From: Candidatus Yanofskybacteria bacterium RIFCSPHIGHO2_01_FULL_41_21
GTDB lineage: Bacteria > Patescibacteriota > Minisyncoccia > 2-02-FULL-40-12 > GWA2-44-9
DNA: 59,436 nt
Reading direction: 5' to 3'
NCBI GenBank assembly: GCA_001794025.1
Contig: MGJA01000013.1
Span: forward strand, 1 to 59,436
Part shown: piece after piece, positions 1 to 59,285 of the stretch
How positions within the stretch are numbered: the stretch's first letter is position 1
How the letters are laid out: each line of letters begins with the position of its first letter
Notes under the pieces: generated by a model
Told to the model about the DNA's origin: nothing
Databases searched by the model: none
Seen by the model: the letters and a program-made list of their open reading frames with translations, nothing else
Position numbers and translations under genes: made by a program

Positions 1-2
1 GC

Positions 3-1817: not shown

Positions 1818-1822
1818 GTCTG

Positions 1823-2076: not shown

Positions 2077-2152
2077 ATGTATTGTTAAGTTCTAACATGA
2101 GAATTTTATCATATAAAACCTTGTTGTTCAACCTGCCTGCTGGTAGGCAGGG

Positions 2153-3463: not shown

Positions 3464-3516
3464 ATTGATGACGCCGTTCCTCTGACCAGTCCAGACTCCT
3501 AGTTGGTAACTTTTGT

Positions 3517-6783: not shown

Positions 6784-6848
6784 GTTTTTGTTTAGGTTAT
6801 TTAAATAGTTATTTCCGCTTAAGTCTCAGTTTAATTAAAATCGTTAAC

Positions 6849-7238: not shown

Positions 7239-7849
7239 ATGGTTATTATTGGTTTATATTCGACCGTACAACGAAAACACCAACCGCAGTGGTTGGTGTT
7301 GGTGCATGAGAAAAACAGGCAGAGATACTTAACGAATGCAACAACATCAACCAGTTTTGGTTGTATTGTTACCTTCGTCAAAGACCCCTTAATCAGAAAT
7401 TTAAATTTCTGTTCGGCAACCTCCTATGACTCATAGAGCGGAATAAACGCTCAGTCGTGTATCTCTACACGCGTAAGGCAATATGTATTTTCGACGTACT
7501 ACACATACCTTAGTACATAGAGAGACAAATGCAATAGAAGTAGGTGGATAACACATTTGGTTCAACAGACTGCCAAAGGAGGCGCAAATTGAACTGTTGG
7601 TAAGCCCCCTTCGCAACCGTCCTTATTTAAGCTTGAATGGACGCCAGGTCGATATTTTGTTAGAATACCCTTAACAATTCAGCCTAAACCCATCAAGAAT
7701 CCTTGGCGGGCATGGCACAAAATCGTTAGGTACATTAAACCCGTCAGAGGGCGTACCTAACGTTATACAGGGAAACTTGTATATGCGACCGAAAGGTTGC
7801 ACCTGTGGCGGGTTTTGTGTTTCTTGCCACCTAAATCCATCCAAGGAGT

Positions 7850-8158
7850 ATGAATGATAAAAATTTAATTTGCGGCAGTTGCGGACACACTAATCCCGCA
7901 AAGAGGGTTACCCGAGGTACTTTCCTTGCGGAAATTACCCTTTGGGTCACAGCCCTCTTTCTACTTTTTGCGATACCATTTATTGGCGGTGTTTTAATCG
8001 TCATAGCGATTGTCTATTCGGTCTGGCGACTCCTCTCTCGAAGAACTAAATGTCAATATTGCGGGAATACAAACCTTATCCCGATTAATAGTCCTATCGG
8101 GAAGAAATTACTTGAAAAATTAGAGAACGGGAAAGAAAGCGAAAAAGGAAATATATAA
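7850..8158 (+). CDS. Zinc-ribbon membrane protein
   Basis: CGSCGH ... CQYCGN Cys pairs flanking two hydrophobic helices; RBS AAGGAG upstream. Confidence 0.5.
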   Translation: MNDKNLICGSCGHTNPAKRVTRGTFLAEITLWVTALFLLFAIPFIGGVLIVIAIVYSVWRLLSRRTKCQYCGNTNLIPINSPIGKKLLEKLENGKESEKGNI

Positions 8159-8173
8159 TTTTCCACCCAACCT

Positions 8174-9247: not shown

Positions 9248-9261
9248 TACTAAATACCCAA

Positions 9262-9296
9262 GCACAAAACGGCTAAAATCAGCCGTTTTGTGCTTT
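9262..9296 (+). terminator. Rho-independent terminator
   Basis: 13-bp stem GCACAAAACGGCT / AGCCGTTTTGTGC followed by TTT. Confidence 0.7.
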
Positions 9297-9335
9297 ACGA
9301 GAGGGCAAAATAGGGCTAAACTTAAGGAATAAACT

Positions 9336-12300: not shown

Positions 12301-12401
12301 CTTTAACCAATGAAGATATCGAGCACTATCAAAAGATAGTCGTTGCGCTAGTTGAAACGGATTTGGTCATGAAAGAGATCGATAAATATCTAAAACCATG
12401 A
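9336..12401 (+). CDS. Fused restriction-modification enzyme: type IIG / helicase-less type ISP-like (PD-ExK nuclease + gamma-class N6-adenine methyltransferase + specificity domain)
   Basis: N-terminal GAPDF...GYAETK (PD...ExK). Methyltransferase motifs AYYTP, LDPAVGTGTF and NPPY (VVGNPPYSG). C-terminal type-ISP-like block YIYAVLHSPSYREKYKEFLKIDFPRIPYP. No Walker A or helicase motifs. Confidence 0.8.
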   Translation: MSQHATSYIAEVSEKYKTGRAGEHAYRPTFEKLVKTIDKTIGIINDPKRTEYGAPDFIFVKGELIAGYAETKDIDVDLDKTVKSEQLERYFGYSNLILTNYLEFRFFRNGSLCGEPIVIGKIDGDTVKIIDESAGTLENAIKDFLISQPEAIKSGVRLAKIMGGKARRIRDNVKQFLTKESDENKELGKIYGTIQQLLVHDLDPSSFADMYAQTLVYGLFVARYHDDSPENFSRREAGDLIPASNPFLRHFFDHIAGINFDQRLAYIVNELCEIFRVADVQKLMSEYYEKNLFGEEIKGPDPVIHFYEDFLKEYDPVLRKKMGAYYTPLPVVRFIVKTVDDILRINFKLADGLADTSKLSNGLHRVQVLDPAVGTGTFISAVIRKIYELFVRTKQEGRWPTYVHHDLLPRIYGFELMMASYTIAHLKLSIEFSKTKFKHFNKRLGIYLTNSLEEIVDQKSLFSGFGLAESITEEAKEAAIIKSERPIMVVVGNPPYSGVSSNTFYTGHGVYKTEPTGGKLKERNSKWLNDDYVKFIRLAESMVEKTGEGIVAMITAHGYIDNPTFRGMRFHLMKTFDEIYVLDLHGNANKEEKASNGDDDKNVFDIKTGVAIFIGIKNKKSKDGIARVSCADCFGSRSSKFEFLNSNSFSSIKWKDINPSAPNYEWVVRDTKTQGEYQKGFSVNELFLKSSVGIVTARDEMSIRLTRGEVEEVIQDFQNLDEETLRSKYDLGKDAQDWKVSWAKKDILENFDNNKIVPISYRPFDVRWTCYTGTSRGFHVRPRSEVMAHMTKDNLALIVLRQVKAGKSFQHIFVSKNITESTLVSNKTSEIGYVLPLYNYDHSDKLPNLDKKIIADFEIIVGKVLSEDIFDYIYAVLHSPSYREKYKEFLKIDFPRIPYPKDKETFKKLVAFGKELRLLHLLESPKINQSVISYPEDGSNIVDKISYTDSRVFINATQYFGNVPEIAWQFWIGGYQPAQKWLKDRKGRALTNEDIEHYQKIVVALVETDLVMKEIDKYLKP

Positions 12402-12916
12402 ATCTAGTTGAATTAATATGGCCACTACTATTACTAATCGTGTTTATTGTCGGCGGCATGTTTGTTTTTCAGATACTTTTTAAAAAATCTTCCAACAAAC
12501 CAGATCTTTCAGTTTACGAAAGGAAGCTATACTTATTTGACACAACCTCGGAATTCAATTTGTATAAAGTATTGTTGGAACTTTTTGGTGATAAGTATTT
12601 CGTTTTTCCTCAAGTTAATTACAGTCATTTAATACAGCCCAGAAAATCAACTTGGGAAGACGAGAGAAAACACAGAAGCCGTATTGATAGAAAGTCAGCC
12701 GACTTTGTTTTATGTGATAAAGAACGAATTGTCCCGCAATTAATCATTGAGCTGGATGGAGGGGTACATAATTTTAAGAGTAAGCAAGTCAGAGATGAAT
12801 TTATAGACGAGCTTACCAAAATTGTAGATCTTCCAATCCTTCACCTGAAGCCTGGTAGCCTAGATAAGGAATTTGTTAAGAACGAAATCAATAAAAAACT
12901 AAACAAAAATTATTAA
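12398..12916 (+). CDS. DUF2726-like (PD-(D/E)xK/Vsr-fold) protein with N-terminal TM helix
   Basis: SADFVLCDKE...IIELDGGVH...DLPILHL; start overlaps the R-M stop (ATGA). Confidence 0.6.
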   Translation: MNLVELIWPLLLLIVFIVGGMFVFQILFKKSSNKPDLSVYERKLYLFDTTSEFNLYKVLLELFGDKYFVFPQVNYSHLIQPRKSTWEDERKHRSRIDRKSADFVLCDKERIVPQLIIELDGGVHNFKSKQVRDEFIDELTKIVDLPILHLKPGSLDKEFVKNEINKKLNKNY

Positions 12917-12918
12917 GT

Positions 12919-13557
12919 ATGGAAGATATTAGTTTAGAAAATCTTAATAAAACCACCGATCCTGTTTTACAAGAGCAACAGGGGTATCCTTTAGATACGG
13001 ATTCTGATCTGGTTGAAAAAAGGCCAGAATTATTTACAAAAATTAAGAAAAAAACAATTAAGGTAGTATCCCTTTATTTACAATTGCTATGGAATGCAAA
13101 TCCGAACGGTAAAACAATAAATGTAATGGATTTAATACTGAACTCGCAAACTCTTTTTGGTACAAAATTTGAAACAAAAGATCGTTTTACAATACGGCAC
13201 ATAGCATCAGATCTCAGGGAAATTTACATATTTATGGATCCGACGAGTTTAAAAAAATGGTATAAAAATATCGATACTGAGAGACCAGATATTTCATCGA
13301 GAATTGACTTGAGCAGGGAAATAAAGAACTTTCTTAGTGAAATCGTCCATCTTAACTATCGTTCAAGTCATGAAGCAGTAAAAAAAGTTTCAAAATTAGT
13401 TAAAGACTTAGACAAAGAAGATCTTGATATACCAGATCAATTTGATAGATATATTGACCACAAAACTTTTGAAGATAGTTTTGATGCGATTTGTGTGATT
13501 TTTATATTTAATTTTTATAAAATATTTGCAGAATTTCTCTACGATGAGGGGACATAA
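12919..13557 (+). CDS. Hypothetical protein (212 aa)
   Basis: Long ORF 2 nt after the previous stop; no motif recognised. Confidence 0.5.
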   Translation: MEDISLENLNKTTDPVLQEQQGYPLDTDSDLVEKRPELFTKIKKKTIKVVSLYLQLLWNANPNGKTINVMDLILNSQTLFGTKFETKDRFTIRHIASDLREIYIFMDPTSLKKWYKNIDTERPDISSRIDLSREIKNFLSEIVHLNYRSSHEAVKKVSKLVKDLDKEDLDIPDQFDRYIDHKTFEDSFDAICVIFIFNFYKIFAEFLYDEGT

Positions 13558-13561
13558 AAAT

Positions 13562-16528
13562 ATGAACCAACTTGAACTACACAAAAAAATAGAAGAATTT
13601 ATTAAAGCAGGAACTGTGTCTGCGGATATTAAAGTTGCCCAAGAATTGATTAAAAACGAGGACGCTAAGCGGTTCTTCTTCTCCCAAACAGATGAGAGTT
13701 GGCTTAATTGGCTTTGGCAGAAAGGTTTTCTCGACGGAGTAAAAAGTAAAATGAAAGATTCTACCACATACTCAAACAGCATGGCGGAGCTTGATTATCT
13801 AACGAAAGTTGCAGGAAAAGAACCAGCCAAGGTTTCGGAAATTATTAATTCTATAAAAATTTCCGAAGTGAACTTTAATCCAGAAGTTGTTGGTCGCTTC
13901 TTATGGATTATTAGCGAACTTCCAGCAGAACAAATCAAGACACTTACAGCAAAAATTAAGGATGAGAAGTGGATTTATTTAATGCGGGGTTTTCGTAAAT
14001 CTGGTTATGAATTTGAAAAGATTATTAAGAAGCTTGTTGAGAAAAAAGAAAGTAGTGCGATTTTGGAGTTGGCCCAAAGCTTGCTTATTGTAAAAAGTAA
14101 AACAGAAATCTTGGAGAAAGAAAGTAGCTTCAGTATTGATGATCCATTCTATGTTAGTGATTTAGATGCGTCTGGTGTTTTTGAGGCTTTAGTCGACATT
14201 GCTGATTCTCACAAAGAAATGGCGCTACAGATTACAACTGGCATAATGGCAGAAATTATAAAATTGGCTGAGCCAGATGAGAGTAAGGTTTTTGATTATC
14301 GAGATCCATTTGCTCTATATGATGTTGATTTCTTTACTCTTGAAATTGAAAACAAGGGTAGTTCCTCATATAGAGAAGATGTTAAAAACCTTGCGGCAAC
14401 TATTAAACAGTTAATTAATAGAACGATTGGCAAGAAACTCAGTAATACCGATGATATAAAACGGTTATTTGGCTATACTGATAAATTACCCTCATCTCGT
14501 TCGATGTGGCGCTTGAGATTATTTGCCCTATCTCGGTGCCCGGAGATATTCAAAAAAGAGTTACGAGATGCATTTTTCAAAGTTTTTGAAGTTGGTGAAA
14601 GATATTTTGAGATTGAAGGAGGGGCCGAATATAATCAGGCACTTATACTTTGTTTTAGTTTCTTAAATCCAGAAACAGATCAGAGGGAATACGTTAAGAA
14701 AATCTTTGAATATTTTGGTGCTGTACTTGAAGATAAAGATAAGGAAGGGTGGAGAAAAAGAGATGGTCTAGAAAAGCTTAGCTTTATAAAAGAATACCTC
14801 ACTCCCGATGAGAAAGAAGAGGCCAAGAAAATATTCAATAAGTATCCAGATGAAATTAATGTTATACCTGAGCCGACAATCGGCAAAATGCATGTTGGCT
14901 CTGTTTCTCACAGATCTCCAGTAAATCTTGATGACTATACAATTGAACAAATTGCTGAAAATCTAAAATCGGAATGGACTCCAGAGAAGCTAAATGAACA
15001 ATTCAAAAACGATGATTTCTTTCAACCTAGGGGGGTTGAGGGTCTCGGCGATGCCTTAAAAGAAAATATTAAAAAGCGAACAAATGAATATCTAAAAAAT
15101 ATTAACTCATTCTTTGATAAGAATAAAGTTCATCCGCATTATGTTTATTCGCTTCTACGAGGTATTGAGGAAATGCTTCGTAATGATAAGAATTCCTTTG
15201 ATGTACCACAGATAGGACAAATTCTAAATTTATTTAACACAATTAAGACAGAAGGAATACGAGAACCATTCAAGCGGAAAGATGATAAATCGTGGCTACC
15301 TGATTGGATAACAGTCCACAAAGTATTAACGGATGTACTGCTTCTTATTCTAGAAAATAAAGAAAGAAAAGAAGAGATTCATAAGGAATACAAGGAAAGA
15401 TTCCGAGAGCTGATTTCTTACTTGTTTACTATTAAAGATAGTCCAGCGAAAGAGGATGAAAAGCCTGAATATGGCGAGCTATACGGCGTAGCGATTAATT
15501 CTGTCCGCGGGCGAGCTTATGAGGCATTCGTTGTGCTTACTGAAAATGATGGAAAAACACTTACCGATGACACCAAGGAACTTTACAAAAAGACACTTCT
15601 TGATGATTCTCTTGCAGTTCGGTTTGTTATTGGTCGTTATCTAGCATCATTCTATTTCCGCGATAAAGAATTTATAATTGGTCTACTTCCAGAAATCTTT
15701 CCAAAAGATGATCTAGTAAAAAAAGATATATATTTAGCGTCTTGGGAGGGTTATCTGTCGAATACCTTATACGATAAATTATTTGCTAAACTTAAAGTTT
15801 ACTATAGCCATGCAATCACGCTTGATCCCAAAGACTATACACAAAGAAAATATTTCAAGGGTCTTGATGAGTCTTTGGCAATTCATGTTGCACTTTCTTT
15901 TGCCCATCTCGGATTAGAGATAGTCGATCCTCTATTTGTAGAGTTTTGGAATAAGCCAAATATAAAGCGTCATCAGGAATTTATATCATTTATTGGTCGC
16001 AGTTGTTTGACGAGAGATCAGGCAGGAGATGAGTGGCTAGCAGAAAACAAAGTTAGCAAAGAAAAACTCTTTAAGTTTTGGGATTGGGCATTGGAAAATT
16101 GTCCGAAACTTGTTGAGCCGGAAGCTCTGGCAGGTTTCGGTTTTTGGGTAAATCCGAATAAAGAAGTCTTAGTCGATATAGACGTAATTGATAGAATGGC
16201 AAAAACCCTTAGAAAGTCGGACGGGAATATTGATTGGGATTATGGGCTAATGAGACGATTACCAATTTTTGCCGAAAAAAATGGAGATAAAACATTAGAG
16301 ATTATATCAAATTTCTTATTGGACTTAAAAGGTAACCTAAACCAAAACCGCCGAGCACCCTTATTTAGTATTGACGGCGAGATTAAGCAGTCACTCGAGA
16401 TTATATATAAGAATGGAGATGTAACCTTAAAAGAAAAAGTTGTTGGACTAATAAATAATCTTATCGAAAAAGGAAGTAGTATGTTTTGGGGCTTAAAAGA
16501 TGTGATAAAAGAAGACAAGATGCTATAA
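13562..16528 (+). CDS. Large all-alpha, repeat-like hypothetical protein (~990 aa)
   Basis: Uninterrupted 3 kb ORF (ORF track start 13526; ATG at 13562 follows the upstream stop). Helix-rich composition. No Walker, nuclease, TIR or SIR2 motifs seen. Confidence 0.6.
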   Translation: MNQLELHKKIEEFIKAGTVSADIKVAQELIKNEDAKRFFFSQTDESWLNWLWQKGFLDGVKSKMKDSTTYSNSMAELDYLTKVAGKEPAKVSEIINSIKISEVNFNPEVVGRFLWIISELPAEQIKTLTAKIKDEKWIYLMRGFRKSGYEFEKIIKKLVEKKESSAILELAQSLLIVKSKTEILEKESSFSIDDPFYVSDLDASGVFEALVDIADSHKEMALQITTGIMAEIIKLAEPDESKVFDYRDPFALYDVDFFTLEIENKGSSSYREDVKNLAATIKQLINRTIGKKLSNTDDIKRLFGYTDKLPSSRSMWRLRLFALSRCPEIFKKELRDAFFKVFEVGERYFEIEGGAEYNQALILCFSFLNPETDQREYVKKIFEYFGAVLEDKDKEGWRKRDGLEKLSFIKEYLTPDEKEEAKKIFNKYPDEINVIPEPTIGKMHVGSVSHRSPVNLDDYTIEQIAENLKSEWTPEKLNEQFKNDDFFQPRGVEGLGDALKENIKKRTNEYLKNINSFFDKNKVHPHYVYSLLRGIEEMLRNDKNSFDVPQIGQILNLFNTIKTEGIREPFKRKDDKSWLPDWITVHKVLTDVLLLILENKERKEEIHKEYKERFRELISYLFTIKDSPAKEDEKPEYGELYGVAINSVRGRAYEAFVVLTENDGKTLTDDTKELYKKTLLDDSLAVRFVIGRYLASFYFRDKEFIIGLLPEIFPKDDLVKKDIYLASWEGYLSNTLYDKLFAKLKVYYSHAITLDPKDYTQRKYFKGLDESLAIHVALSFAHLGLEIVDPLFVEFWNKPNIKRHQEFISFIGRSCLTRDQAGDEWLAENKVSKEKLFKFWDWALENCPKLVEPEALAGFGFWVNPNKEVLVDIDVIDRMAKTLRKSDGNIDWDYGLMRRLPIFAEKNGDKTLEIISNFLLDLKGNLNQNRRAPLFSIDGEIKQSLEIIYKNGDVTLKEKVVGLINNLIEKGSSMFWGLKDVIKEDKML

Positions 16529-16529
16529 A

Positions 16530-17303
16530 ATGAAATTTTTAACAGATTATGAGGACAAATTGACAGAGGTAGCAAAAAAAGAAGGACTTATCTGTCTCGA
16601 TGATTTCGAAGTTTTAAACTTTGATGGTAAGAACGCACTGGCCTTCCTTGAGCTGATTTCAAAGACCAGACTTTCATTAAATACTCTTGGAAATATTGAT
16701 CTTCTGACACATGATTTGATTAATTCGATATCACCAGATATTAAATTTTCTCTAGCTAATATTTACTTATATTTTCCGAGCGCCAATAACTTTCTCAAGG
16801 AAATTAAACATATGAATGGCCAGGATGTCCCTACTTATAACAGGACCTTATCCGATAGAAGATTCTTTTATTATATAAATGTGGCTTTTGAAAAACTCTA
16901 TAATTTTTGGGATAGGGTTGGCGATACCCTTGCAATGGCTTTCAAGCTAGAAATACCCGAAAAGGAAATATTCTTCGGTGGAGTTATAGACAAACTTTGT
17001 ACTCTCGGTATAGAGTCTGAAGAGCTACAATGGTTAAAAAAGTTCAAAGATTCTGATTACTCTACTTTTCTTAACCGTCTTAGAATTAAGATAGTTCACT
17101 ATAGACAGAAAGATAGTTACTTTTTTATGGAGTGGGTCAACAGTTTTACAAATACTGAACCTGGTAATATTGAACTTTTAGTGCAACTTCAAAAAGAAAA
17201 AGAAGAACTACCCGTGCTACTCAAGGAACAATTTAAATTAACAAATATTGGTTTCGAAAAAATGGTAAAGTTAATTCACTTTCATGGCCCCTATGAAAAG
17301 TAG
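16530..17303 (+). CDS. Predicted HEPN-domain protein (Rx4H motif)
   Basis: RIKIVH (R-x4-H) in LNRLRIKIVHYRQK within the helical C-terminal half; 1 nt after the upstream stop. Confidence 0.5.
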   Translation: MKFLTDYEDKLTEVAKKEGLICLDDFEVLNFDGKNALAFLELISKTRLSLNTLGNIDLLTHDLINSISPDIKFSLANIYLYFPSANNFLKEIKHMNGQDVPTYNRTLSDRRFFYYINVAFEKLYNFWDRVGDTLAMAFKLEIPEKEIFFGGVIDKLCTLGIESEELQWLKKFKDSDYSTFLNRLRIKIVHYRQKDSYFFMEWVNSFTNTEPGNIELLVQLQKEKEELPVLLKEQFKLTNIGFEKMVKLIHFHGPYEK

Positions 17304-23293: not shown

Positions 23294-23315
23294 TCATTTC
23301 TGAATTTCTAACGGG

Positions 23316-32493: not shown

Positions 32494-32512
32494 TATTTTA
32501 TAAGAATATTAA

Positions 32513-32556
32513 TTAAATACCAACAGTCCCGCCTAGGCGGGACTGTTGGTATTTAA
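32513..32556 (-). terminator. Long perfect hairpin downstream of the 32576-33424 gene
   Basis: ~19-bp stem AAATACCAACAGTCCCGCC / GGCGGGACTGTTGGTATTT. Confidence 0.6.
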
Positions 32557-32575
32557 TTTTATCTCTTGTTTAAGT

Positions 32576-42805: not shown

Positions 42806-43024
42806 CCCTCCACCCTAATACCCACTTAATTATTCGTAAAATTGTATCAACGTCACTTGAGGTATACTCTTATCCCCAGACCCGGGAAACCAGTCCCGTC
42901 GGTTTCCCCAAAGGGACCCCTTCCGCTACTGGGTCTAAGAGTATACCTCAAGTGACTCAGAATTAAATTTCTCCACAACCTGTCTACTGGTAGACAAGCT
43001 TCTCGCTGGGGGTTAGGGTGTCGG
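42806..43024 (+). repeat. Nested palindromic element, long form, carrying conserved asymmetric core (copy 1 of 4)
   Basis: Outer IR CCCTCCACCCTAA / TTAGGGTG; middle IR GTCACTTGAGGTATACTCTTAT / TAAGAGTATACCTCAAGTGAC; core 42874-42935. Confidence 0.85.
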
Positions 43025-44181: not shown

Positions 44182-44295
44182 ATCCCGTTAGAAGTGAACC
44201 CTAATGGGAATAAATTATATTAACTATTAATCAAAGTGTATCTAGCTTGCCACTATCTTAATACGGTGGATGTTGTGTAGCACTTCTAACGGGAT
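44182..44295 (+). promoter_or_regulatory. Structured 5' leader / palindromic element enclosing the start codon (homologue of 33423-33534)
   Basis: Arms ATCCCGTTAGAAGTG / CACTTCTAACGGGAT; extended -10 TGATATACT at 44166-44174 just upstream; AUG at 44294. Confidence 0.5.
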
Positions 44296-47311: not shown

Positions 47312-48546
47312 GAGTTAAACTTTTTCAGGAATTTTGTTTTGTAACTTTGATACGAGCCACGCGCGAGCGAGGCTCGTATTTCGTTTAAAAGATTATTAAA
47401 GAACCACATATTGTGCATTAGGCACCATCTCTGACCTTTTGCATTTAATTCACGGTCTTCGTTTTTAATCAAAGCCCTAATTTTAGAGCGGGATATTTTA
47501 GAGGAACAAGTCAAACAACCGCAACCTTTTTCAATCACTTTTTTGTCGTTTGAAAAAGCGCCTCGGCGAATATCCATGTGACCGGTTTTGGTATAGAGCC
47601 GACCGTGACGGGCTTCACGGGTGGGGATGACGCAATCAAAAGTATCAATACCATTATCTATTGCTTCAAAGACATCCGCTACTTTACCGACACCTAATAA
47701 ATGACGGGGTTTTTCTTCTGGTAAATAAGGAACGACCCATTTCAACATTTTTGAAATTTGTTTTTTAGTGTATGACCCACCAATACCGAAACCGTCAAAA
47801 GGCATAAAGCCGATTGATTTAGCGCTTTTAATCCGAAGATCTTTAAATAACCCGCCTTGAACTATGCCAAATAACATTTGTTTTGGATCCCTTGTTTTTA
47901 AACATATCTTTGCCCATTTATCTGTAAGCTCAACTGCTTTTCTATTATATTCATAATCATCTAACGGTGAAGTGATCTGGTCAAAGGCAAATATAATATC
48001 TGCCCCGATCTTGCTTTGGAGTTTCATGGATAATTTCGGACCCAAAAACGATTTTTCTCCTTTAAAATTAAAATGAACTCCTTTTTGAGTAATCCTAATC
48101 TTACTGCGTTTATAACTCGCATCTGGCTTAGAATCGCCCGTCATAAATTTTCCGACTTTATTTTTATCACCAAAAGCCAGCGATAATACTTGAAACCCGC
48201 CACTATCGGTCATAGTCGGGATATTTAAACCTAATTTTTGTGTTAAAAATGTGTCTAATTTTTTGTTTTTTTCCGCCAGTTGGCGCATTGACTTATTACT
48301 TTGCAACACGGTATCCCAGAGGTGGAAGGTATTGGCAATGACTAGTTGCGATTTTGTTTTGGGAATATCACTTGGTTTGAGATGGAGAAACTTGCCATAA
48401 GTCCCAACGAACACATAGGATGGTGTTTTGATGATGCCATGAGGAGTTGTTAAAATACCCAAACGGGCTCTTGTTTGCTTGTCTTTTTTAATGATAGTAA
48501 ACCCCGCCGTTGAAGAATGATGTGTCTTTTTTATAGTGTTTATCAT
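47308..48546 (-). CDS. tgt: tRNA-guanine transglycosylase
   Basis: DSGGFQV, LLGVG, zinc site CGCLTCS. Confidence 0.85.
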   Translation of the reverse strand: MINTIKKTHHSSTAGFTIIKKDKQTRARLGILTTPHGIIKTPSYVFVGTYGKFLHLKPSDIPKTKSQLVIANTFHLWDTVLQSNKSMRQLAEKNKKLDTFLTQKLGLNIPTMTDSGGFQVLSLAFGDKNKVGKFMTGDSKPDASYKRSKIRITQKGVHFNFKGEKSFLGPKLSMKLQSKIGADIIFAFDQITSPLDDYEYNRKAVELTDKWAKICLKTRDPKQMLFGIVQGGLFKDLRIKSAKSIGFMPFDGFGIGGSYTKKQISKMLKWVVPYLPEEKPRHLLGVGKVADVFEAIDNGIDTFDCVIPTREARHGRLYTKTGHMDIRRGAFSNDKKVIEKGCGCLTCSSKISRSKIRALIKNEDRELNAKGQRWCLMHNMWFFNNLLNEIRASLARGSYQSYKTKFLKKFNS

Positions 48547-48643
48547 ATATAACGTTATTTTATACTGCTCTTCAACGGCGGGGTAAACATAGTGCGTTAT
48601 GATATCATGAAAAGCAGATTTTGACTAAGAGATTTGATTTGAT

Positions 48644-49200: not shown

Positions 49201-49203
49201 CGG

Positions 49204-49364
49204 TTAAGAAATATTTTCAATAAAGTACCGATAATCGGCCGGCTCCTGCGGCCGGCCGTCATCTAGACGCTCGCCCCCTCACCAAGCACCAAGCTTCGGG
49301 GGTTCGTCAATTGGCTAAAGCAAATTGACCTGCGCGACTTACTTTGTTTGCAAATATTTCTTAA
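49204..49364. repeat. Nested palindromic intergenic element
   Basis: 13-bp terminal IR TTAAGAAATATTT / AAATATTTCTTAA; internal GC-rich hairpins and GTCAATT...AATTGAC. Confidence 0.7.
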
Positions 49365-51526: not shown

Positions 51527-52492
51527 ATGTTTGACTTAATTATCATTGGTGGTTCGGCGGCTGCTACGACGGCTGGTGTTTATGCGGCCCGTCGCGGTCT
51601 CAATCCCGCCCGACCGGATGACTCCGGTCAGTCGGGCGGGTTTAAAATAATTACCAAAGAATTTGGGGGTGAAGTGGCGACATCGGGTGAAATTGAAAAT
51701 TGGCCCGGCATTGTTCATACGGATGGCCTATCACTTGCTGAACAATTTAGGGTCCATCTAAATACTAATCATGTTACCCCAGAAGAAGGTGTGGTGGTTT
51801 CATCAATTACCAAACAGATTGATGGTAATTTTGTAATTTCTACTGAAGTTGATGGAGAAAAAAAAGAATATACATCTCGAGCCGTTATTGTTACAACCGG
51901 CGTTCATCCTAAGGAACTTGGTGTTCCCGGAGAGAAAGAGTTTAGAAACAAAGGTGTTACTTATTGTACAACTTGTGATGGGCCGTTATTTCAAGGTAAA
52001 ATCACAACTGTTGTTGGTGGGGGCAATTCCGCCCTTGAATCGGCGTTGATGCTGGCCGATATTGCTTCACAGGTCTTTGTTGTAAATAAAAACGACAAGT
52101 TTAAGGGTGAACAGATTTTGATTGATAAGCTTAATGCCAGACAAAATGTTAAGATTATTTATCAAGCCAAGACCACGGAAATAAAAGGCGATTCAGCAGG
52201 CGGACTTGTTTCTGAATTAGTGTATACTGATTCAAGTGGGGTATTACAAACTTTAAAAACTGACGGCGTATTTATTCATATCGGTATGGTTCCAAATTCT
52301 GGAATTGTACCCGAAGATATTTTGAAAGATAAATTTGGTCAAATTATTGTTGATGATCATTGTGCCACAAATATCCCGGGGTTATTTGCCGCCGGTGACG
52401 TGACTGATGTCCCATTTAAACAAATCGTAATTGCCGCCGGCCAAGGATGTATTGCTACCCTGTCCGCAGTAGAATACCTCAATAGAAAGTAA
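51527..52492 (+). CDS. trxB: Thioredoxin-disulfide reductase with 12-codon palindromic insertion
   Basis: GGSAAATTAGVYAARRG FAD motif, redox CTTCDG, GGGNSALE NADPH motif, GDV. Confidence 0.85.
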   Translation: MFDLIIIGGSAAATTAGVYAARRGLNPARPDDSGQSGGFKIITKEFGGEVATSGEIENWPGIVHTDGLSLAEQFRVHLNTNHVTPEEGVVVSSITKQIDGNFVISTEVDGEKKEYTSRAVIVTTGVHPKELGVPGEKEFRNKGVTYCTTCDGPLFQGKITTVVGGGNSALESALMLADIASQVFVVNKNDKFKGEQILIDKLNARQNVKIIYQAKTTEIKGDSAGGLVSELVYTDSSGVLQTLKTDGVFIHIGMVPNSGIVPEDILKDKFGQIIVDDHCATNIPGLFAAGDVTDVPFKQIVIAAGQGCIATLSAVEYLNRK

Positions 52493-53004: not shown

Positions 53005-53011
53005 GACAGCT

Positions 53012-53119
53012 AGAACTAACCTTTTCGCCCCAGACCCGGGGAACCATTCGCCAGCCGGCGGACCGACGGTTCCCCCGCAAGCGGGACCCCTTCCGCTACT
53101 GGGTCAAAGAGTAGGTTCT
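53012..53119 (+). repeat. Palindromic element, short form, with conserved core (copy 2 of 4)
   Basis: Core 53027-53105 CCCCAGACCC...GGGACCCCTTCCGCTACTGGGTC. Confidence 0.8.
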
Positions 53120-53129
53120 TCCTTCAAAC

Positions 53130-54863
53130 ATGAATTTAGAGGGGTTACATATTAAGGGTGATATCACGACCGCTGATGCGGATCGTGTTCGTTATTCTCA
53201 TGATGCGAGTATTTTTGAAGTTAAACCGGAAGTCATCATTTATCCCAAGGATAGTGAAGATGTAAAAAATCTCGTGAGATGGGTTGGGGAGCATAAGGCC
53301 GAACAGCCCTTCGACGATGCTCAGGGTAAACCCGAAATTTCATTGACTGCTCGTTCGGCCGGTTCAGATATGTCCGGCGGACCACTGAATGATTCTATTA
53401 TTCTTGATTTCACTAAGTATTTTAATCATGTTTTGGAAGTAGGCAATGAATATGCAGTGACGGAACCCGGTGTGTATTATCGGGATTTTGAAAAGGAAAC
53501 TTTGGCTAAGGGTTTACTCTTGCCTTCCTATCCCGCTTCTAGGGAAATATGTGCGATGGGTGGTATTGTTGCCAACAATTCTGGCGGTGAAAAATCTCTG
53601 GCATATGGAAAGACCGAGAAATATATTGAGGAATTAAATGTTGTTTTATCTGATGGTAATGAATATGTTTTCCGATCCCTGACTCCTGAAGAATTGGAAA
53701 TTAAAAAATCCCAAAATGATTTTGAAGGCCAGATTTATCGAGAGATGCATGCTCTCATCGAATCCAATTATGATGCGATTCAAAAAGCGAAACCGGATGT
53801 TTCTAAAAATTCTGCCGGTTATAATTTGTGGGATGTTTTAGTGCCTATAAATGAACTTGATCCCGTACGAAGTCGCGCTCGCGACTCTGTCGCGAGTCCA
53901 AAGGACCGTGGCGCGGCTACTTCGTACGGGATGAATCTGAATAAATTATTTGTCGGTTCGCAGGGTACCCTTGGTCTAGTCACTAAAATAAAATTTAAAC
54001 TCATTAAACCTAAAAAGTATTCAAAACTTTTGGTTATCTTTTTGAATGATCTTGCTCCTCTTGGTGATTTGGTTAATGAAGTGATGCAGTTTAAACCCGA
54101 AAGTTTTGAGACCTATGATGACCAGACACTAAAACTAGCTATTCGATTTTTGCCGGATCTTATAAAAAAAATGAAAGGCAGTGCCTTGTCTTTATTCTTT
54201 GAATTTACACCGGAAGCGATAATGATTCTGACTGGTGGTCTGCCAAAACTGGTCCTGCTCGCAGAATTTACAAGTGATGACGAATCGGAAGTTGATGAAA
54301 AATTGGCAAAGGTGCAGCAAATTGTTGAGTCAAAATTTAAAGCCAAGACCCATATTACTAAAGATTCCGAAGAAGCGGAAAAATACTGGACTATTCGCCG
54401 TGAGAGTTTTGCTTTGTTACGAAAACACGTTGGGGATAAACACACAGCACCGTTTATTGATGATGTGATCGTTCATGTTGACCAGTTGCCGACATTTCTC
54501 CCTAAACTTAACCAATTAGTCGGTGAATATCCCGGATTAACTTACACCATTGCCGGCCATGCCGGTGATGCAAATTTTCATGTTATCCCGTTGATGGATT
54601 TTCATAACGAAGCCAATCGTCAAGCTATCCCCGAATTGTCTGAAAAGGTCTATGATTTGGTTGTTTCATTGCACGGTTCAATTACCGCTGAACATAATGA
54701 CGGGCTGATTCGTACACCTTACCTTGGAAAAATGTATAGTCCGGAAATTATAGAATTATTTAAAAAAACCAAACAAATATTTGATCCGCAAAATATTTTT
54801 AATCCGCGCAAAAAAGTCGGTGGAACATTACAATACTCACTGGCACATATTTCAAAAGAATGA
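53130..54863 (+). CDS. FAD-linked oxidase (GlcD/D-lactate dehydrogenase family) with repeat-derived insertions
   Basis: FAD_binding_4-type N-terminus (ARSAGSDMSGG), C-terminal GSITAEHNDG. Confidence 0.75.
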   Translation: MNLEGLHIKGDITTADADRVRYSHDASIFEVKPEVIIYPKDSEDVKNLVRWVGEHKAEQPFDDAQGKPEISLTARSAGSDMSGGPLNDSIILDFTKYFNHVLEVGNEYAVTEPGVYYRDFEKETLAKGLLLPSYPASREICAMGGIVANNSGGEKSLAYGKTEKYIEELNVVLSDGNEYVFRSLTPEELEIKKSQNDFEGQIYREMHALIESNYDAIQKAKPDVSKNSAGYNLWDVLVPINELDPVRSRARDSVASPKDRGAATSYGMNLNKLFVGSQGTLGLVTKIKFKLIKPKKYSKLLVIFLNDLAPLGDLVNEVMQFKPESFETYDDQTLKLAIRFLPDLIKKMKGSALSLFFEFTPEAIMILTGGLPKLVLLAEFTSDDESEVDEKLAKVQQIVESKFKAKTHITKDSEEAEKYWTIRRESFALLRKHVGDKHTAPFIDDVIVHVDQLPTFLPKLNQLVGEYPGLTYTIAGHAGDANFHVIPLMDFHNEANRQAIPELSEKVYDLVVSLHGSITAEHNDGLIRTPYLGKMYSPEIIELFKKTKQIFDPQNIFNPRKKVGGTLQYSLAHISKE

Positions 54864-55525
54864 TTCAAATTTTACCCGCTATTCTGGCTGAGACACCGGA
54901 ACAATTCAAACAGATGGTGGAAAAGGTCTCTCCTTTTGCGTCTGTCCTGCATCTGGACACATCTGATGGAGTTTTTACAGATACTAAATTTATTGGCCCG
55001 GATGTCCTGGCATCTTCACCGGCAAATATTGAATGGAGTGCACATTTGATGGTTCAAAATCCTGAAAATATTATTTTGTCCTGGCTGGATCTGCCGAATG
55101 TTAAAAGGATTATTTTCCACATTGAGACCACTGACCCCGCTCTTGTCCACAAGGACGGGGTAAACAAAACTCAAGAAATCATTGATACTGTACACAATGC
55201 CGGGAAGGAGATAGGGATTGCGTTAAATCCAGAGACCAACATAGAAGCGGTGGAACCATTCATGGAGCAGGTTGATTTTGTCCAATTTATGTCAGTCCAT
55301 CCCGGTCAGTATGGTGCAGAGTTTCTGCCTGATGTTCTGAATAAGGTCAGTGATTTTCATATTAAACACCCAAATGTTAAAATAGCGATTGACGGAGGAG
55401 TTAATCCTGAACGGATACCGGCAATGCAAAAAGCGGGCGTTTCAATTTTTATCTCCGGAGGATATATTATGAATAGCGATAATCCTGAAAAAGCAATCGC
55501 AGAACTGAAGGATAGATTTCGTTAA
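54860..55525 (+). CDS. rpe: Ribulose-phosphate 3-epimerase-like protein
   Basis: HLDTSDG, MSVHPGQYG, IAIDGGV. Confidence 0.65.
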   Translation: MIQILPAILAETPEQFKQMVEKVSPFASVLHLDTSDGVFTDTKFIGPDVLASSPANIEWSAHLMVQNPENIILSWLDLPNVKRIIFHIETTDPALVHKDGVNKTQEIIDTVHNAGKEIGIALNPETNIEAVEPFMEQVDFVQFMSVHPGQYGAEFLPDVLNKVSDFHIKHPNVKIAIDGGVNPERIPAMQKAGVSIFISGGYIMNSDNPEKAIAELKDRFR

Positions 55526-55526
55526 G

Positions 55527-55619
55527 AATTAGTCCTTTGCCCCAGACCCATGAAACCAGTCCCGTCGGTTTCCCCAGCTTCGCTGGGACCCCTTCCGCTA
55601 CTGGGTCCAAGGACTAATT
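55527..55619 (+). repeat. Palindromic element, short form, with conserved core (copy 3 of 4)
   Basis: Outer IR AATTAGTCCTTTG / CCAAGGACTAATT; core 55540-55606. Confidence 0.85.
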
Positions 55620-55633
55620 TTTAACTACAACAT

Positions 55634-58040: not shown

Positions 58041-58154
58041 AAAGCAAAACAGTATTACCCTTCTGGGTACGCGTCAAAATCCTGCTGGATTTTGCGCTCA
58101 CTCTCGCGCCATCGCGCTCCGAAAGCCCCTTCAGGGCAACACTATTTTGCTTTT
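58040..58154. repeat. Nested palindromic intergenic element
   Basis: Terminal IR AAAAGCAAAACAGT / ACTATTTTGCTTTT; internal CAAAATCC-TGCT-GGATTTTG. Confidence 0.7.
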
Positions 58155-58162
58155 AAAAAATT

Positions 58163-59077
58163 ATGACATTAAACGACTATTTAAAAAAAGCTCGAGAAGG
58201 AAGATATGCTATCGGACATTTTAATTTTGCGACGGAAGATGTTTTGAAGGCGATTGTGGCGGGAGCGAAAGAGGCCGGCGCGACGTGTGTTATGGTCGGG
58301 ACGTCGGAGGGCGAAGCGGAGTTCGTTGGTCTTAAAGAAGCGGTGGCGTTGGTTCGAGCGGTGGCTGATGATATGCAGTTTCCTGTATTTTTGAATGCCG
58401 ACCATTTTAAATCATTTGAGAAATGCAAAGAAGCAATTGATGCCGGATATGATTCTATAATTGCCGACCCCGTCAGAAGCCGCTCCGTTTCGGCTGTCTC
58501 AGGACAGCCTGCTTCTAACGGGGCAAGTGGTCTTGGTTTTCAAGAGAGAGTAGATATTACACGACAAGTTGTTGAATATGCCCGTTCTGTGAATCCGGCC
58601 ATTTCTGTGGAAGGGGAGCTTGGATATTTGAAGGGCTCGTCAGAAGTTCAGACAAAAATTGAAATTAGTTCGGCAGATTATTCAAAACCTGAAGAGGTGG
58701 CTGATTTTATTACCAAAACGGGAGTAGACCGAATGGCTGTGGTTTTTGGTAATATCCATGGCATTGTCACTGATCAAGAAGAAAAACTGGATATTGAACA
58801 TTTTTTAAAAATAATAGCGACCGCGCCACAACCCTATTATGTTTTACACGGTGCGTCAGGATTAAAAGATGAAGACATTAAATTAGTTATTCAAGCCGGT
58901 ATTACAAATATCCATTTCAATACAGAACTTCGGGTAGCTTATCACGATAAACTGAAAGAGGAATTTACCGACCCATCTACTTCGTCTGAGACCACTCCCT
59001 ACAAATACCTCGCTCCCGCCGCCGAAGAAGTCAAAAAATTAGTGATGGCAAAAACTCGCTTGTTTATAGGTCGTTAA
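58163..59077 (+). CDS. fba: Class II fructose-bisphosphate aldolase with 18-codon palindromic insertion
   Basis: YAIGHFNF, NADH, GELG, FGNIHG, VLHGASG. Confidence 0.85.
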   Translation: MTLNDYLKKAREGRYAIGHFNFATEDVLKAIVAGAKEAGATCVMVGTSEGEAEFVGLKEAVALVRAVADDMQFPVFLNADHFKSFEKCKEAIDAGYDSIIADPVRSRSVSAVSGQPASNGASGLGFQERVDITRQVVEYARSVNPAISVEGELGYLKGSSEVQTKIEISSADYSKPEEVADFITKTGVDRMAVVFGNIHGIVTDQEEKLDIEHFLKIIATAPQPYYVLHGASGLKDEDIKLVIQAGITNIHFNTELRVAYHDKLKEEFTDPSTSSETTPYKYLAPAAEEVKKLVMAKTRLFIGR

Positions 59078-59080
59078 TAT

Positions 59081-59285
59081 CCCTCCACCCCAACCCCCGA
59101 CTTAATTATCCGTAAAATTGTACTAGCGTCACTTGGAGTACACTCTTATCCCCAGACCCAGGGAACCAGTCCCGTCGGTTCCCCTAAAGGGACCCCCTCC
59201 ACTACTGGGTCTAAGAGCATACCCCAAGTGACTTAGAGTGAAATTACTCTGCGACTTCTCGCTTAGGGTTAGGGTGTTAGTCGCT
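59081..59285 (+). repeat. Nested palindromic element, long form, with conserved core (copy 4 of 4)
   Basis: Collinear with 42806-43024 including flanks; core 59150-59211. Confidence 0.85.

Follow-up and report, generated by a model that had tools for sequence, protein, structure and literature searches.

A hairpin-forming, MITE-like element family with in-frame copies in Patescibacteria genes, probably including a palindromic insert in fructose-bisphosphate aldolase

Selfish palindromes that sit in frame within protein genes are singled out for Rickettsia in a 2024 review of MITEs (PMC10969869). As that review presents the work of Ogata et al. (2000, 2002), the Rickettsia palindromic elements (RPEs) are dispersed palindromic repeats found in frame in unrelated housekeeping genes. 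The same review covers the bacterial MITEs, including Correia, ERIC, Nezha and the QMITE of Coxiella. REPs of the GTAG and CGTC type are 20-40 bp long and combine an unpaired end tag with stems of 5-13 bp and loops of 2-20 nt, and intragenic copies are known as well (Di Nocera et al., 2013, PMC3733652).

Here we analysed a window of 59,436 nucleotides, the whole stretch of DNA presented above, in which a 54-nt GC-rich palindrome, CCCGTCAGAAGCCGCTCCGTTTCGGCTGTCTCAGGACAGCCTGCTTCTAACGGG, lies inside the gene for a class II fructose-bisphosphate aldolase (FBA), an essential gene of glycolysis, in a tiny bacterium from groundwater (Patescibacteria). This segment most likely represents one copy of a short mobile element, hairpin-forming and non-coding, which is MITE-like and would work like the Rickettsia palindromic elements. 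The family to which it belongs is large and apparently undescribed, but of an already-known kind (RPE/MITE-like) that is newly seen in Patescibacteria; the literature we searched contained no report of such elements in this group.

The host gene is identified as a class II aldolase by its sequence profile, with PF01116 matched at E = 7.5e-61 (206 bits vs a curated cut-off of 25.5) and proteins of the PDB at E = 2.7e-38 by phmmer, and by the predicted TIM-barrel fold, as the model aligns to class IIb aldolases with TM-scores of 0.85-0.89 (Foldseek). The motifs DH, GNIHG and LHGASG are invariant across the aligned FBA homologues and all invariant residues of these homologues are kept in the host protein, and the enzyme with the insert looks intact. 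An earlier inspection of the letters alone (the sequence-only reading) had described an in-frame addition of exactly 18 codons with 12-nt inverted termini. Both points hold: the open reading frame runs through the insert without a stop and the arms are complementary save one C/A position, with the pairing reaching one base into the flanks (C58468/G58523) and an inner hairpin formed by GGCTGTC/GACAGCC. Folded as single strands, the plus strand reaches -30.7 kcal/mol (z = -4.8) and the minus strand -35.4 kcal/mol (z = -5.4), and for either strand none of 200 shuffles was as good. The tryptic peptide predicted from the insert is SVSAVSGQPASNGASGLGFQER.

In phmmer alignments to the solved class II aldolases 7nc7, 3q94 and 4to8 the insert appears as one exact 18-residue gap (..IIAD[18 aa]ASGLGFQERV / ..MID-ASHHPFEENV). 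This confirms the proposed position between the conserved Asp and Ala-Ser, which corresponds to the end of strand beta4. In the AlphaFold2 model, residues 105-122 have a pLDDT below 50 (83 overall) and lie between E98-101 and H126-143. As to the question of a surface loop, the insert maps to a loop between beta4 and alpha4 that is predicted to be disordered. This loop follows immediately upon the invariant Asp, at the catalytic (C-terminal) face of the barrel, and is no remote surface loop. Besides, every FBA carrier shows a changed flank, having lost S-K/R and replaced an otherwise invariant Asn by R, K or Q, and since the flank is altered in every carrier, the insert is not simply neutral to the protein.

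Table 1. Position of the aldolase gene, its insert and the related palindromes in the window.
Feature	Position	Strand	Remarks
Class II (type b) fructose-bisphosphate aldolase gene, 304 aa	58163..59077	+	PF01116, phmmer, Foldseek
FBA palindromic core	58469..58522	+	54 nt, 12-nt arms, inner 7-bp hairpin; read as PVRSRSVSAVSGQPASNG
GCAAGT hexamer	58523..58528	+	adjoins 3' end of FBA core
69-nt family core CCCGTACGAAGT...ACTTCGTACGGG	53862..53930	+	in frame in FAD-linked oxidase ORF 53130-54863; encodes PVRSRARDSVASPKDRGAATSYG
24-nt imperfect CCCG...CGGG palindrome (55136-55159) + GTAAAC	55136..55165	+	in frame in ribulose-phosphate 3-epimerase (PALVHKDGVN)
36-nt near-perfect CCCGCC...-type palindrome	51605..51640	+	in frame in thioredoxin-reductase-like ORF 51527-52492 (PARPDDSGQSGG)
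80-nt CCCGCC-type palindrome CCCGCCGTTGAAGA...TCTTCAACGGCGGG	48503..48582		overlaps first 15 codons of minus-strand TGT gene
Long 110-nt intergenic copy	44184..44293		AT-rich interior, perfect 15-nt arms incl. flank bases
Long 108-nt intergenic copy CCCGTTAGAAATT...AATTTCTAACGGG	33425..33532		fold z-score -8.3
Solo right arm AATTTCTAACGGG	23296..23315		followed by ATGAAC, start of small ORF

By sequence, the FBA element belongs to a hairpin family with the termini (Y)CCCGTTAGA...TCTAACGGG(R). Exact matches to CCCGTNNGAAG occur six times in the window, compared to about 0.45 expected by our own arithmetic (nine specified bases, two strands), and they always form inverted pairs (44184/44293, 53862/53930 and 58469/58522), while the pair 33425/33532 deviates by one mismatch in each arm. 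The likeness of the termini to the intergenic elements at 33.4 kb and 44.2 kb, on which the sequence-only reading had built its idea of a family, is thereby substantiated. Palindromes of the CCCG...CGGG type number ten in the window, against a mean of 0.45 and a maximum of 3 in 200 shuffles. The window holds four family copies of the CCCGT type and three related palindromes of the CCCGC type (Table 1). A search of the palindromes against Rfam gave no family at the gathering score, and at E <= 10 a single snoRNA match at chance level (E = 0.89, 24.9 bits vs a cut-off of 100).

Three in-frame copies came to light in addition to the one in FBA, in the genes for the FAD-linked oxidase, the thioredoxin-reductase-like protein and ribulose-phosphate 3-epimerase. 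All three are missing from the sister species and from orthologues (about 20 for the oxidase and about 50 for the thioredoxin-reductase-like gene). The oxidase copy is a member of a 73-nt subfamily conserved in 7 loci, which folds into a Y-shape and keeps its hairpin through compensatory changes in 8 of 30 pairs. The thioredoxin-reductase-like gene has a clean insertion without duplication, the empty site reading AAT directly followed by TTT in 10 loci, and the 6-nt extra in the epimerase is not a copy of the target. Within one stretch of 11 kb with about ten genes, there are thus four in-frame inserts in genes of the window and three more in the sister species. Of the long intergenic copies, the one at 44184 is flanked on both sides by ATGAAT, which corresponds to T-core-A plus a TGAA direct repeat. 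Strain-level empty sites for these long copies were looked for among L223-L227 and no polymorphism was seen; these five loci are unusable for this purpose because they represent the same strain (99.5-100% identical).

The family extends well beyond the window. Complete CCCGTTAGA pairs were found nine times in 1.24 Mb of related genomes, where arms occur 29 times compared to 9.5 expected, and a metagenome scan yielded at least 132 elements on at least 120 contigs. Among the matches listed, identical 59-nt copies occupy five sites on four contigs (L102, L106 with two copies, L110 and L121). The elements are small (30-120 nt), non-coding and multi-copy, and from copy to copy and from genome to genome they keep their terminal inverted repeats of 10-17 bp. 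Members have these conserved termini in common, with variable interiors of 30 to about 120 nt, and the family is spread through Paceibacteria/Yanofskybacteria-type Patescibacteria as well as groundwater and sediment metagenomes. Matches in the scan of viral contigs (4 and 8) were not taken as evidence for the family, since their loci have a GC content of 0.37-0.62 and are devoid of the family flank signature, and their count is, by a rough estimate, what chance gives among natural hairpins.

Insight into the mode of integration comes from the flanks. Of the 131 listed elements with full flanks, 87 are bordered, outside Y-core-R, by perfect 4-bp direct repeats, compared to 12.4 expected from re-pairing the flanks (maximum 24 in 1000 trials). 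The flank tetramer reads T-N-N-A in 94 of these 131 listed elements, and its two variable middle positions agree between both sides in 81% and 73% of the listed elements, a pattern that a staggered cut gives. A single 6-bp duplication, considered instead of Y-core-R plus a 4-bp repeat, was rejected since agreement at the outer positions reaches only 40-47% among the matches listed. Integration of typical members takes place at T-N-N-A and leaves a 4-bp direct repeat, with the transposase presumably supplied in trans. Several in-gene copies, including those in FBA and the thioredoxin-reductase-like gene, carry no target duplication. We searched 2.1 Mb of sequence for family arm pairs, or any CCCG-type 14-nt inverted repeats, lying 500-4000 nt apart, and found no autonomous element or transposase with these termini; all matches turned out to be separate small elements or chance pairs. 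Pfam matches of the genes called in the window include a serine recombinase only, with neither a Y1 transposase nor an integron integrase.

The duplication-free insertions would also fit a REP/RAYT or IS200/IS605-type mobility, in which a tyrosine (HUH) transposase moves single-stranded hairpins beside a short target without duplicating it, and the flank repeats are an element end that resembles the target. We regard this as unlikely, despite several observations in line with it: insertions of this kind are found in the thioredoxin-reductase-like gene, FBA and a further locus (L007), hexamers that do not stem from the target accompany the copies in the epimerase gene and in the FBA of L077, and the left flank T-N-N-A-Y is nearly constant among the matches listed. 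Moreover, compensatory changes keep the hairpin and copies occur in both orientations relative to genes, which together point to a requirement at the DNA level. However, the statistics of the flank repeats are those of a staggered cut, an unpaired GTAG or CGTC tag is missing, with CGT lying inside the stem, and the Pfam matches in the window lack a Y1 transposase. We therefore favour a MITE-like element mobilised by a trans-acting enzyme for the family as a whole.

In the case of FBA, about 175 of 193 distinct related sequences are without the insert and 17 carry it, so that the presence/absence polymorphism sought by the sequence-only reading exists. An orthologous insert with two substitutions was found on 10 contigs of the sister species, whose FBA gene is 87% identical outside the insert, and homologues at the same site and of the same length are scattered across the FBA tree in other, distant lineages. 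A target duplication is not recognisable at this copy (flanks CCGA and CAAG, net gain exactly 54 nt). Since it lacks a duplication, is common to the sister species and has same-site homologues in other lineages, the FBA copy is old. In consequence, the notion of a mobile palindrome family colonising core metabolic genes stands with respect to a dispersed family with in-frame copies in core genes, but not with respect to a fresh colonisation of FBA. Its patchy distribution suggests that this old loop after the invariant Asp was spread by recombination between related populations, or was repeatedly lost.

The immediate surroundings of the FBA core deserve attention as well. In all FBA carriers with DNA read, the six positions 3' of the core are GCA-AGT, GCA-GGT or GCA-AGC. 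The GCAAGT hexamer is probably derived from the element, as family members add the core plus 6 nt. By our own count, the downstream DNA of the L018 type agrees with uninserted relatives in 16 of 24 positions if the hexamer is taken as extra and two codons as deleted, and otherwise in 12 of 30. A tract of foreign DNA downstream of the insert was considered and rejected, as the anomaly is limited to residues 121-130 and realignment describes the L018 type better as a 6-nt gain plus a 6-nt loss. Outside this site, L007 has a homologous 54-nt copy at a locus other than FBA (L007:3632-3685), which is oppositely oriented and 87.5% identical over 48 nt, and L077 carries an element of the same family at another FBA site, together with a 6-nt extra that does not copy the target.

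The uniformity of the carriers raises the possibility of a homing-like cassette: the insert and its short downstream flank would be a site-specific unit, and no relic of random transposition, that passes from one species to another and always enters FBA at the same codon. Gene conversion following a cut in the empty allele, or transformation with homologous recombination, would bring this about. All 17 carriers have in common the site, the 54-nt length, the GCA-AGY flank and the flank substitutions, a combination found in 0 of about 175 non-carriers. On a tree of the rest of the gene, they are scattered, and all of 100 bootstraps call for 9-13 state changes; between L018 and L221, core (0.91) and flank (0.85) are more alike than the rest of the gene (0.75); and on a contig of the sister species genes for LAGLIDADG and GIY-YIG endonucleases are located 5-6 kb downstream of FBA. 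On the other hand, no endonuclease is linked to the FBA site, neighbour-joining trees of such a shallow radiation are noisy and FBA genes may themselves recombine, the anomalous flank comprises only about 10 codons and is largely explained by the indel pair, and the same subfamilies occur at unrelated loci, which fits ordinary transposition. Taken together, we consider a cassette of this kind doubtful. The same holds for its most far-reaching version, which we put forward as speculation: a living site-specific mini-cassette, in which a co-adapted 10-codon flank by the active-site Asp travels with the hairpin and the GCAAGY hexamer, might be spreading horizontally among Patescibacteria species. 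Homing-like gene conversion or transformation-driven allele replacement would place it at one and the same codon of an essential gene. Its hairpin would be kept by selection or by conversion within the hairpin, and a single family of hairpins, whose 11-bp termini are conserved, may be common to phyla of groundwater bacteria and may reshape loops of their core proteins.

Selection may have acted on the insert in another way, if either the hairpin (via mRNA stability, processing or translation speed) or the protein loop (via a new property of the aldolase) were functional and not selfish. Within each FBA type the core has diverged less than the remainder of the gene (0.91 vs 0.75, 0.93 vs 0.76 and 0.96 vs 0.87), and the arms differ between types by paired changes that preserve the pairing; neither is expected of a dead neutral passenger. 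Furthermore, the insert adjoins the active-site face with a co-adapted flank, and in some contigs (e.g., L130) small copies line the gene boundaries of one gene row in a REP-like manner. Nevertheless, we judge this improbable as an account of the elements, because unrelated genes and sites are struck in both orientations, the peptides are not conserved between subfamilies, the insert is missing from most close relatives and the loop is predicted to be disordered.

The copies inside genes are constrained by the reading frame. Among the matches listed, the core length is divisible by three in 46 of 49 elements in long ORFs, compared to 40 of 82 elsewhere, and the in-ORF copies use two frames only (PVR 30 times, PLE 19 times); their hosts include UvrA, GyrA, RtcB, ComEC, CinA, MurG, trigger factor and TrmD. 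Persistence in a gene would require i) a length that is a multiple of three, ii) use of one of the two frames in which the arm does not contain TAG and iii) a site that tolerates a loop. Surviving copies would then be translated as hydrophilic loops of 12-25 residues, either Pro-Val-Arg...Ser-Asn-Gly or x-Pro-Leu-Glu...Leu-Thr-Gly, and presumably be neutral. It is very improbable that the inserts are instead removed from the mRNA or bypassed during translation, the latter being the case for GC-rich palindromes of some yeast mitochondria. The elements do resemble the GC-rich palindromic clusters in an AT-richer genome known as byp elements from Magnusiomyces, but neither removal nor bypass would need the frame keeping and freedom from stops seen in the in-ORF copies.

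Two further readings can be set aside. The arm CCCGTCAGAA is similar to the uptake sequence of Neisseria, GCCGTCTGAA, and Patescibacteria carry ComEC, so that the arms could be taken for DNA uptake signal sequences in inverted pairs. Such sequences are described as frequent inside genes in one account (PMC2346458). This interpretation was rejected as highly implausible, as the arms are almost always paired, enclose element-like interiors and come with flank duplications, and the window shows no excess of single arms (12 matches with <=1 mismatch vs 8.4 expected). Finally, although chimeric reads can give rise to palindromes, it is next to impossible that assembly or amplification produced this one, as the identical 304-aa protein was called on 15 contigs from several samples, assemblies and assemblers, and the insert recurs in the sister species and in same-site homologues elsewhere.

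If the proposed nature of the family is correct, in-frame selfish palindromes, so far treated as a near-peculiarity of Rickettsia, would now be found at high density in the Candidate Phyla Radiation, where they would explain part of the odd length variation of Patescibacteria proteins. For annotators and structure predictors this is a warning that such loops may be mobile DNA and not a lineage-specific function. At the same time, the inserts could serve as natural markers of insertion-tolerant loops in essential enzymes and as fine-scale markers of strain and species history in uncultured groundwater bacteria. With its patchy same-site insert, FBA would allow recombination across species boundaries to be tested in organisms regarded as scavengers of DNA.

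Among the known systems, integron attC sites are imperfect palindromes of 57-141 bp with conserved ends and variable interiors, which have the order R'' (RYYYAAC) ... R' (GTTRRRY) and occur with an integrase and a cassette array. Our elements are likewise imperfect palindromes with variable interiors and GTTAGA/TCTAAC at their ends, but the order is GTTAGA...TCTAAC instead of TCTAAC...GTTAGA and copies lie inside genes; with the core motifs reversed and neither integrase nor cassette array in the gene list of the window, this assignment was rejected. The byp elements of yeast mitochondria are also GC-rich palindromes that invade protein genes of an AT-richer genome, but ribosomes skip them and an in-frame position is not required, whereas the frame is kept here. 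With REPs, the family has in common short GC-rich hairpins that occupy intergenic positions and in some cases lie in frame within genes, among them repair genes such as uvrA, and CGTC REPs are likewise without a known transposase. In contrast to REPs, CGT is paired within a stem of 10-17 bp, the elements measure 36-120 nt with interiors of 25-90 nt that are long or often branched, and most copies have flank duplications. Closer are the MITEs, with which the elements agree in their terminal inverted repeats, their small, non-coding and multi-copy nature, the occasional in-frame fusion to ORFs and, for most listed family members though not for the FBA copy, the target duplication; they differ in the very dense in-gene copies and in that the 2.1 Mb searched yielded no insertion sequence with these termini that could be the parent. 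With the RPEs, they have in common palindromic, translation-compatible inserts placed in frame and in loops in a manner compatible with the protein fold, additional intergenic copies and small, reduced host genomes. They differ from RPEs in their hosts (Patescibacteria and other groundwater bacteria instead of Rickettsia), in the length of the in-gene copies (36-75 nt vs roughly 100-150 bp for RPE-1) and in their defined termini, most copies being flanked by a 4-bp T-N-N-A duplication. The analogy to RPEs drawn by the sequence-only reading is thus apt as a description of how the element appears to work, a likeness in behaviour and no claim of membership in an RPE family.

The palindrome at 58469-58522 (CCCGTCAGAAGCCGCTCCGTTTCGGCTGTCTCAGGACAGCCTGCTTCTAACGGG) lies within the ORF 58163-59077 (+, 304 aa), whose product matches PF01116 (E = 7.5e-61) and is a class II fructose-bisphosphate aldolase (FBA); the element is read as PVRSRSVSAVSGQPASNG. 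Its 12-nt outer arms pair save at one C/A position, the pairing extends one base into the flanks, and the interior contains a 7-bp hairpin (GGCTGTC/GACAGCC). Single-strand folding yields -30.7 kcal/mol for the + strand (z = -4.8) and -35.4 kcal/mol for the - strand (z = -5.4), values that none of 200 shuffles reached. The in-frame insertion of 18 codons proposed by the sequence-only reading is thereby borne out, as is its position between D and AS: in an alignment to solved Bacillus and Staphylococcus aldolases, the sole large gap comprises exactly the 18 insert residues, after the Asp ending strand beta4 and before Ala-Ser. An assembly artefact, raised earlier as an objection, is ruled out, with 15 contigs from several samples and assemblies calling the identical 304-aa protein. 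These contigs stem from groundwater metagenome assemblies, and the best homologues bearing names are from Patescibacteria, Paceibacterota and Yanofskybacteria MAGs. The window FBA retains all residues invariant among the aligned homologues. In its AlphaFold2 model (mean pLDDT 83) about residues 103-120 form a loop with pLDDT <50 between strand E98-101 and helix H126-143, and the remainder superposes on class IIb aldolases with TM-scores of 0.85-0.89. The question of a surface loop thus receives a mixed answer: a low-pLDDT loop is present, but since it emerges where a barrel strand reaches its C-terminal end, immediately past the invariant Asp, TIM-barrel architecture would place it on the catalytic face.

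The window contains six exact copies of CCCGTNNGAAG, all of them in inverted pairs, compared to a calculated expectation of ~0.45. The termini shared with the elements at 33.4 and 44.2 kb were confirmed, and the in-frame oxidase copy, absent from the earlier list, is added here (see table). Altogether, the window holds 10 CCCG...CGGG palindromes (shuffle mean 0.45, maximum 3), for which an Rfam search returned no matching family. At the TGT gene, the first 15 codons of the ORF (MINTIKKTHHSSTAG) come from one arm of the 80-nt palindrome and a portion of its interior, and TGT orthologues outside the sister species align only from the A/G-F that follows; a new N-terminus or start codon may derive from this palindrome. 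Besides, a perfect 48-nt palindrome whose halves adjoin without a spacer (AATTAAATACCAACAGTCCCGCCT|AGGCGGGACTGTTGGTATTTAATT) is located at 32511-32558 between two minus-strand genes.

Features of the window and of compared contigs (L) and FBA homologues (P)
Feature	Position	Strand	Remarks
Inverted CCCGTNNGAAG pairs	44184/44293; 53862/53930; 58469/58522		exact
Inverted CCCGTNNGAAG-like pair	33425/33532		one mismatch each
69-nt core, FAD-linked oxidase gene	53862-53930		in frame, read PVRSRARDSVASPKDRGAATSYG
36-nt CCCG...CGGG palindrome, thioredoxin-reductase-like gene	51605-51640		in frame, PARPDDSGQSGG
CCCG...CGGG palindrome, ribulose-phosphate 3-epimerase	55136-55159 + GTAAAC		in frame, PALVHKDGVN
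80-nt CCCG...CGGG-related palindrome overlapping TGT gene 5' end	48503-48582		TGT on minus strand
Long intergenic palindromic insertions, other sequence types	58041-58162 (122 nt); about 49203-49360 (~150 nt)		missing in sister species L219
In-frame inserts of the sister species			TGT 45 nt (CCCGGTAGT...); hypothetical protein 42 nt; FBA 21 nt
Prepilin-leader elements	L174:1544-1603; L120:304-363; L175:868-918		plus many TTTAC/GTTTAC-flanked copies
Same-site FBA type PVRSRS..ASNG			window, P0001, P0002
Same-site FBA type, shortened PAKPSADSRG			L007, P0003
Same-site FBA type PAQSNSADRQ..TL(G/S)G			L018, P0024, P0027, P0030, P0046, P0081
Same-site FBA type, related cluster			P0067, P0078, P0092, P0099
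Same-site FBA type PVVEIS..SHYG			L025, L027
Oriented repeats	42852-42956; 53005-53130; 55521-55625; 59128-59232	same	directly 3' of + strand stop codons
LOOT RNA (RF03000)	7681-7801	+	full-length Rfam match, 77 bits (gathering score 46)
Group I intron match (RF00028)	1869-2056	-	60 bits (gathering score 50)
Serine recombinase	2153-3463	-	island gene
ParB-N6/N4 methyltransferase	5458-6783	-	island gene
Type IIG/ISP restriction-modification enzyme	9336-12401		island gene
DUF2726			island gene
HEPN protein	16530-17303		island gene

Comparison with orthologues reveals presence/absence polymorphism. The thioredoxin-reductase-like insert is missing in ~50 orthologues, with the same empty site AAT|TTT in all 10 empty-site loci recovered, the oxidase insert in ~20, and the epimerase insert in every orthologue compared. 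The sister species (L219/L220; DNA 81% identical over 10.9 kb, gene order conserved) lacks these three and shares the FBA insert, two substitutions apart. In one 11-kb stretch of ~10 genes, window genes thus carry four in-frame inserts, and the sister species has a further three. The 122-nt intergenic palindrome is located between the upstream stop codon and the FBA start codon. In the sister species, LAGLIDADG and GIY-YIG endonuclease genes lie 5-6 kb downstream of FBA (L219:15960-17205).

The family is also found in other genomes. A survey of 1.24 Mb surrounding FBA in 80 species-representative genomes yielded nine complete CCCGTTAGA...TCTAACGGG pairs (L007, L008, L068, L077, L079, L080 and the window) and 29 family arms against 9.5 expected. 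These loci include a 48-nt member (PVRGREGSQRVSASNG) at another FBA site in L077, a member in a gene other than FBA in L080, and, at a non-FBA locus, the 54-nt element of the window FBA itself (L007:3632-3685; 87.5% identity over 48 nt), in opposite orientation and with a compensatory change in the inner hairpin. Among metagenome contigs, CCCGTTAGAR-N25-55-YTCTAACGGG matched at least 132 elements on at least 120 contigs; among the matches listed, identical 59-nt copies occupy five sites on four contigs (L102, L106 twice, L110, L121). The 73-nt subfamily of the oxidase copy (seven loci, 87% column-by-column identity) folds into a Y shape with both-side changes in 8 of 30 pairs. As its alignment needed both orientations relative to the host genes, the structure is more likely required by DNA than by mRNA.

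Flanks were compared across the 131 listed elements that have them in full. The base preceding CCCG is C or T in 129, the base following CGGG complements it in 123, and a T-N-N-A tetramer lies outside these bases in 94, its two variable middle positions being the same on both sides in 81% and 73% of elements. Of the 131, 87 carry a perfect 4-bp direct repeat, compared to 12.4 expected upon random flank re-pairing (maximum 24 in 1000 trials). From these statistics, a typical insertion would gain the core (the palindrome proper) plus 6 nt, a result resembling that of a cut with a 4-bp stagger. Exceptions are the thioredoxin-reductase-like insert, which is perfectly clean, the epimerase and L077 FBA inserts, whose hexamer does not repeat the target sequence, and the FBA insert of the window. 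No gene bounded by family termini was found in 2.1 Mb of loci, and the serine recombinase is the only possible mobility enzyme listed among called window genes with a Pfam match.

Among the matches listed, the core length is divisible by three in 46 of 49 elements in long ORFs vs 40 of 82 elsewhere, and only two reading frames are used (PVR...SNG 30 times, xPLE...LTG 19 times); the third runs into TAG within CCCGTTAGA. Selection against frameshifts and stops would produce this pattern, provided that the inserts are translated, and the pattern argues against splicing or bypass. Listed hosts comprise UvrA, GyrA, RtcB, ComEC, CinA, MurG, trigger factor, TrmD, a XerC/D-like recombinase, polyprenyl synthases, PMT-type glycosyltransferases and CCA/poly(A) polymerase. 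Several copies reside in leaders of prepilin-type proteins, adjoining the G|FTLIELL cleavage motif on its 5' side. The commonest flank, TTTAC, is part of the motif codons GGG-TTT-AC, so that prepilin-type gene families may serve as target reservoirs. One such host protein has an H-X9-DG domain; prepilin-type proteins with this domain are typical of Planctomycetota and related phyla, and therefore the family may extend past Patescibacteria.

The aldolase copy has a history of its own. Of 193 distinct FBA sequences, 17 carry an insert at this site, which confirms the polymorphism anticipated from the sequence; these inserts fall into types by peptide motif. Where carrier DNA was read, full-length copies of the first four types measure 54 nt (that of L007 is shortened to 30 nt) and those of L025/L027 57 nt, always with GAC upstream and GCA-AGT, GCA-GGT or GCA-AGC directly downstream. 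Arm changes between types are paired (GTCAGAAGC/GCTTCTAAC, GCCCAAAGT/ACTTTAGGC, GTGCAAAAT/ATTTTGAGC). Every carrier, and none of ~175 non-carriers, has lost the S-K/R following Asp and has R, K or Q for an otherwise invariant Asn of helix alpha4; this anomalous flank is limited to residues 121-130. The window insert shows no recognisable flanking repeat. In the L018 type, downstream DNA matches uninserted relatives at 16 of 24 positions with GCAAGT taken as extra and two codons deleted, otherwise at 12 of 30, and the extra hexamer is consistent with the core + 6 rule. Within types, conservation is higher in the core than in the gene (0.91 vs 0.75, 0.93 vs 0.76, 0.96 vs 0.87), with between-type core identity of only 0.37-0.43. 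On neighbour-joining trees built from the protein outside the insert, the carrier state requires 9-13 changes in 100 of 100 bootstraps, compared to 13-16 for shuffled states. We favour a single old insertion, or a small number of them, after which the allele either passed from lineage to lineage through recombination or was repeatedly lost. Spread by a homing-like mechanism is possible, but no linked enzyme supports it.

Further insertions were seen in FBA homologues. The P0027 insert has 31 rather than 18 aa, with 13 additional residues (TEILERLKHTPPS) inside, perhaps through nesting of a second insertion or through expansion from within. A second hot spot follows window residue 202-204 (P0050, P0107, P0112, L012, L018, L048, L078), with a palindrome of different type (CCCCGACG...CGTCGGGG, read KEVVTAPT..GVPTE.SG), and other homologues have variable inserts behind residues 39, 142-145 and 221-225.

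The window also contains a second, oriented repeat family, confined to its strain among the loci compared. It has a ~65-nt conserved core (CCCCAGACCCrGGrAACCAGTCCCGTCGGTTyCCCC...GGGACCCCTTCCGCTACTGGGTC), compensatory changes, variable outer stems and no Rfam match, and may represent a structured RNA or terminator-like element. About 1-17300 resembles an integrated island or defence region, across which the GC content drops from 0.43 to 0.33-0.35; LOOT RNA lies there in the gap between ORFs 6849-7238 (-) and 8174-9247 (+). A tRNA search of the window found none.

Regarding known systems, the family is not a tagged REP, because its tag is paired and its interiors are long, nor an attC site, whose core motifs run in the opposite order. 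With MITEs it shares terminal inverted repeats, a lack of coding capacity and, in most copies with full flanks, a 4-bp duplication; no parent was found in the 2.1 Mb of loci. Searches of an open-access library turned up no description of such elements for Patescibacteria. The proposed RPE-like mobile family in core genes is supported, except that the FBA copy, devoid of a recognisable repeat, is read as old. The behaviour of the family matches that of Rickettsia palindromic elements and intragenic REPs (PMC10969869, PMC3733652), here in a new phylum, with dense in-gene copies in core genes and an unexplained same-site aldolase cassette.
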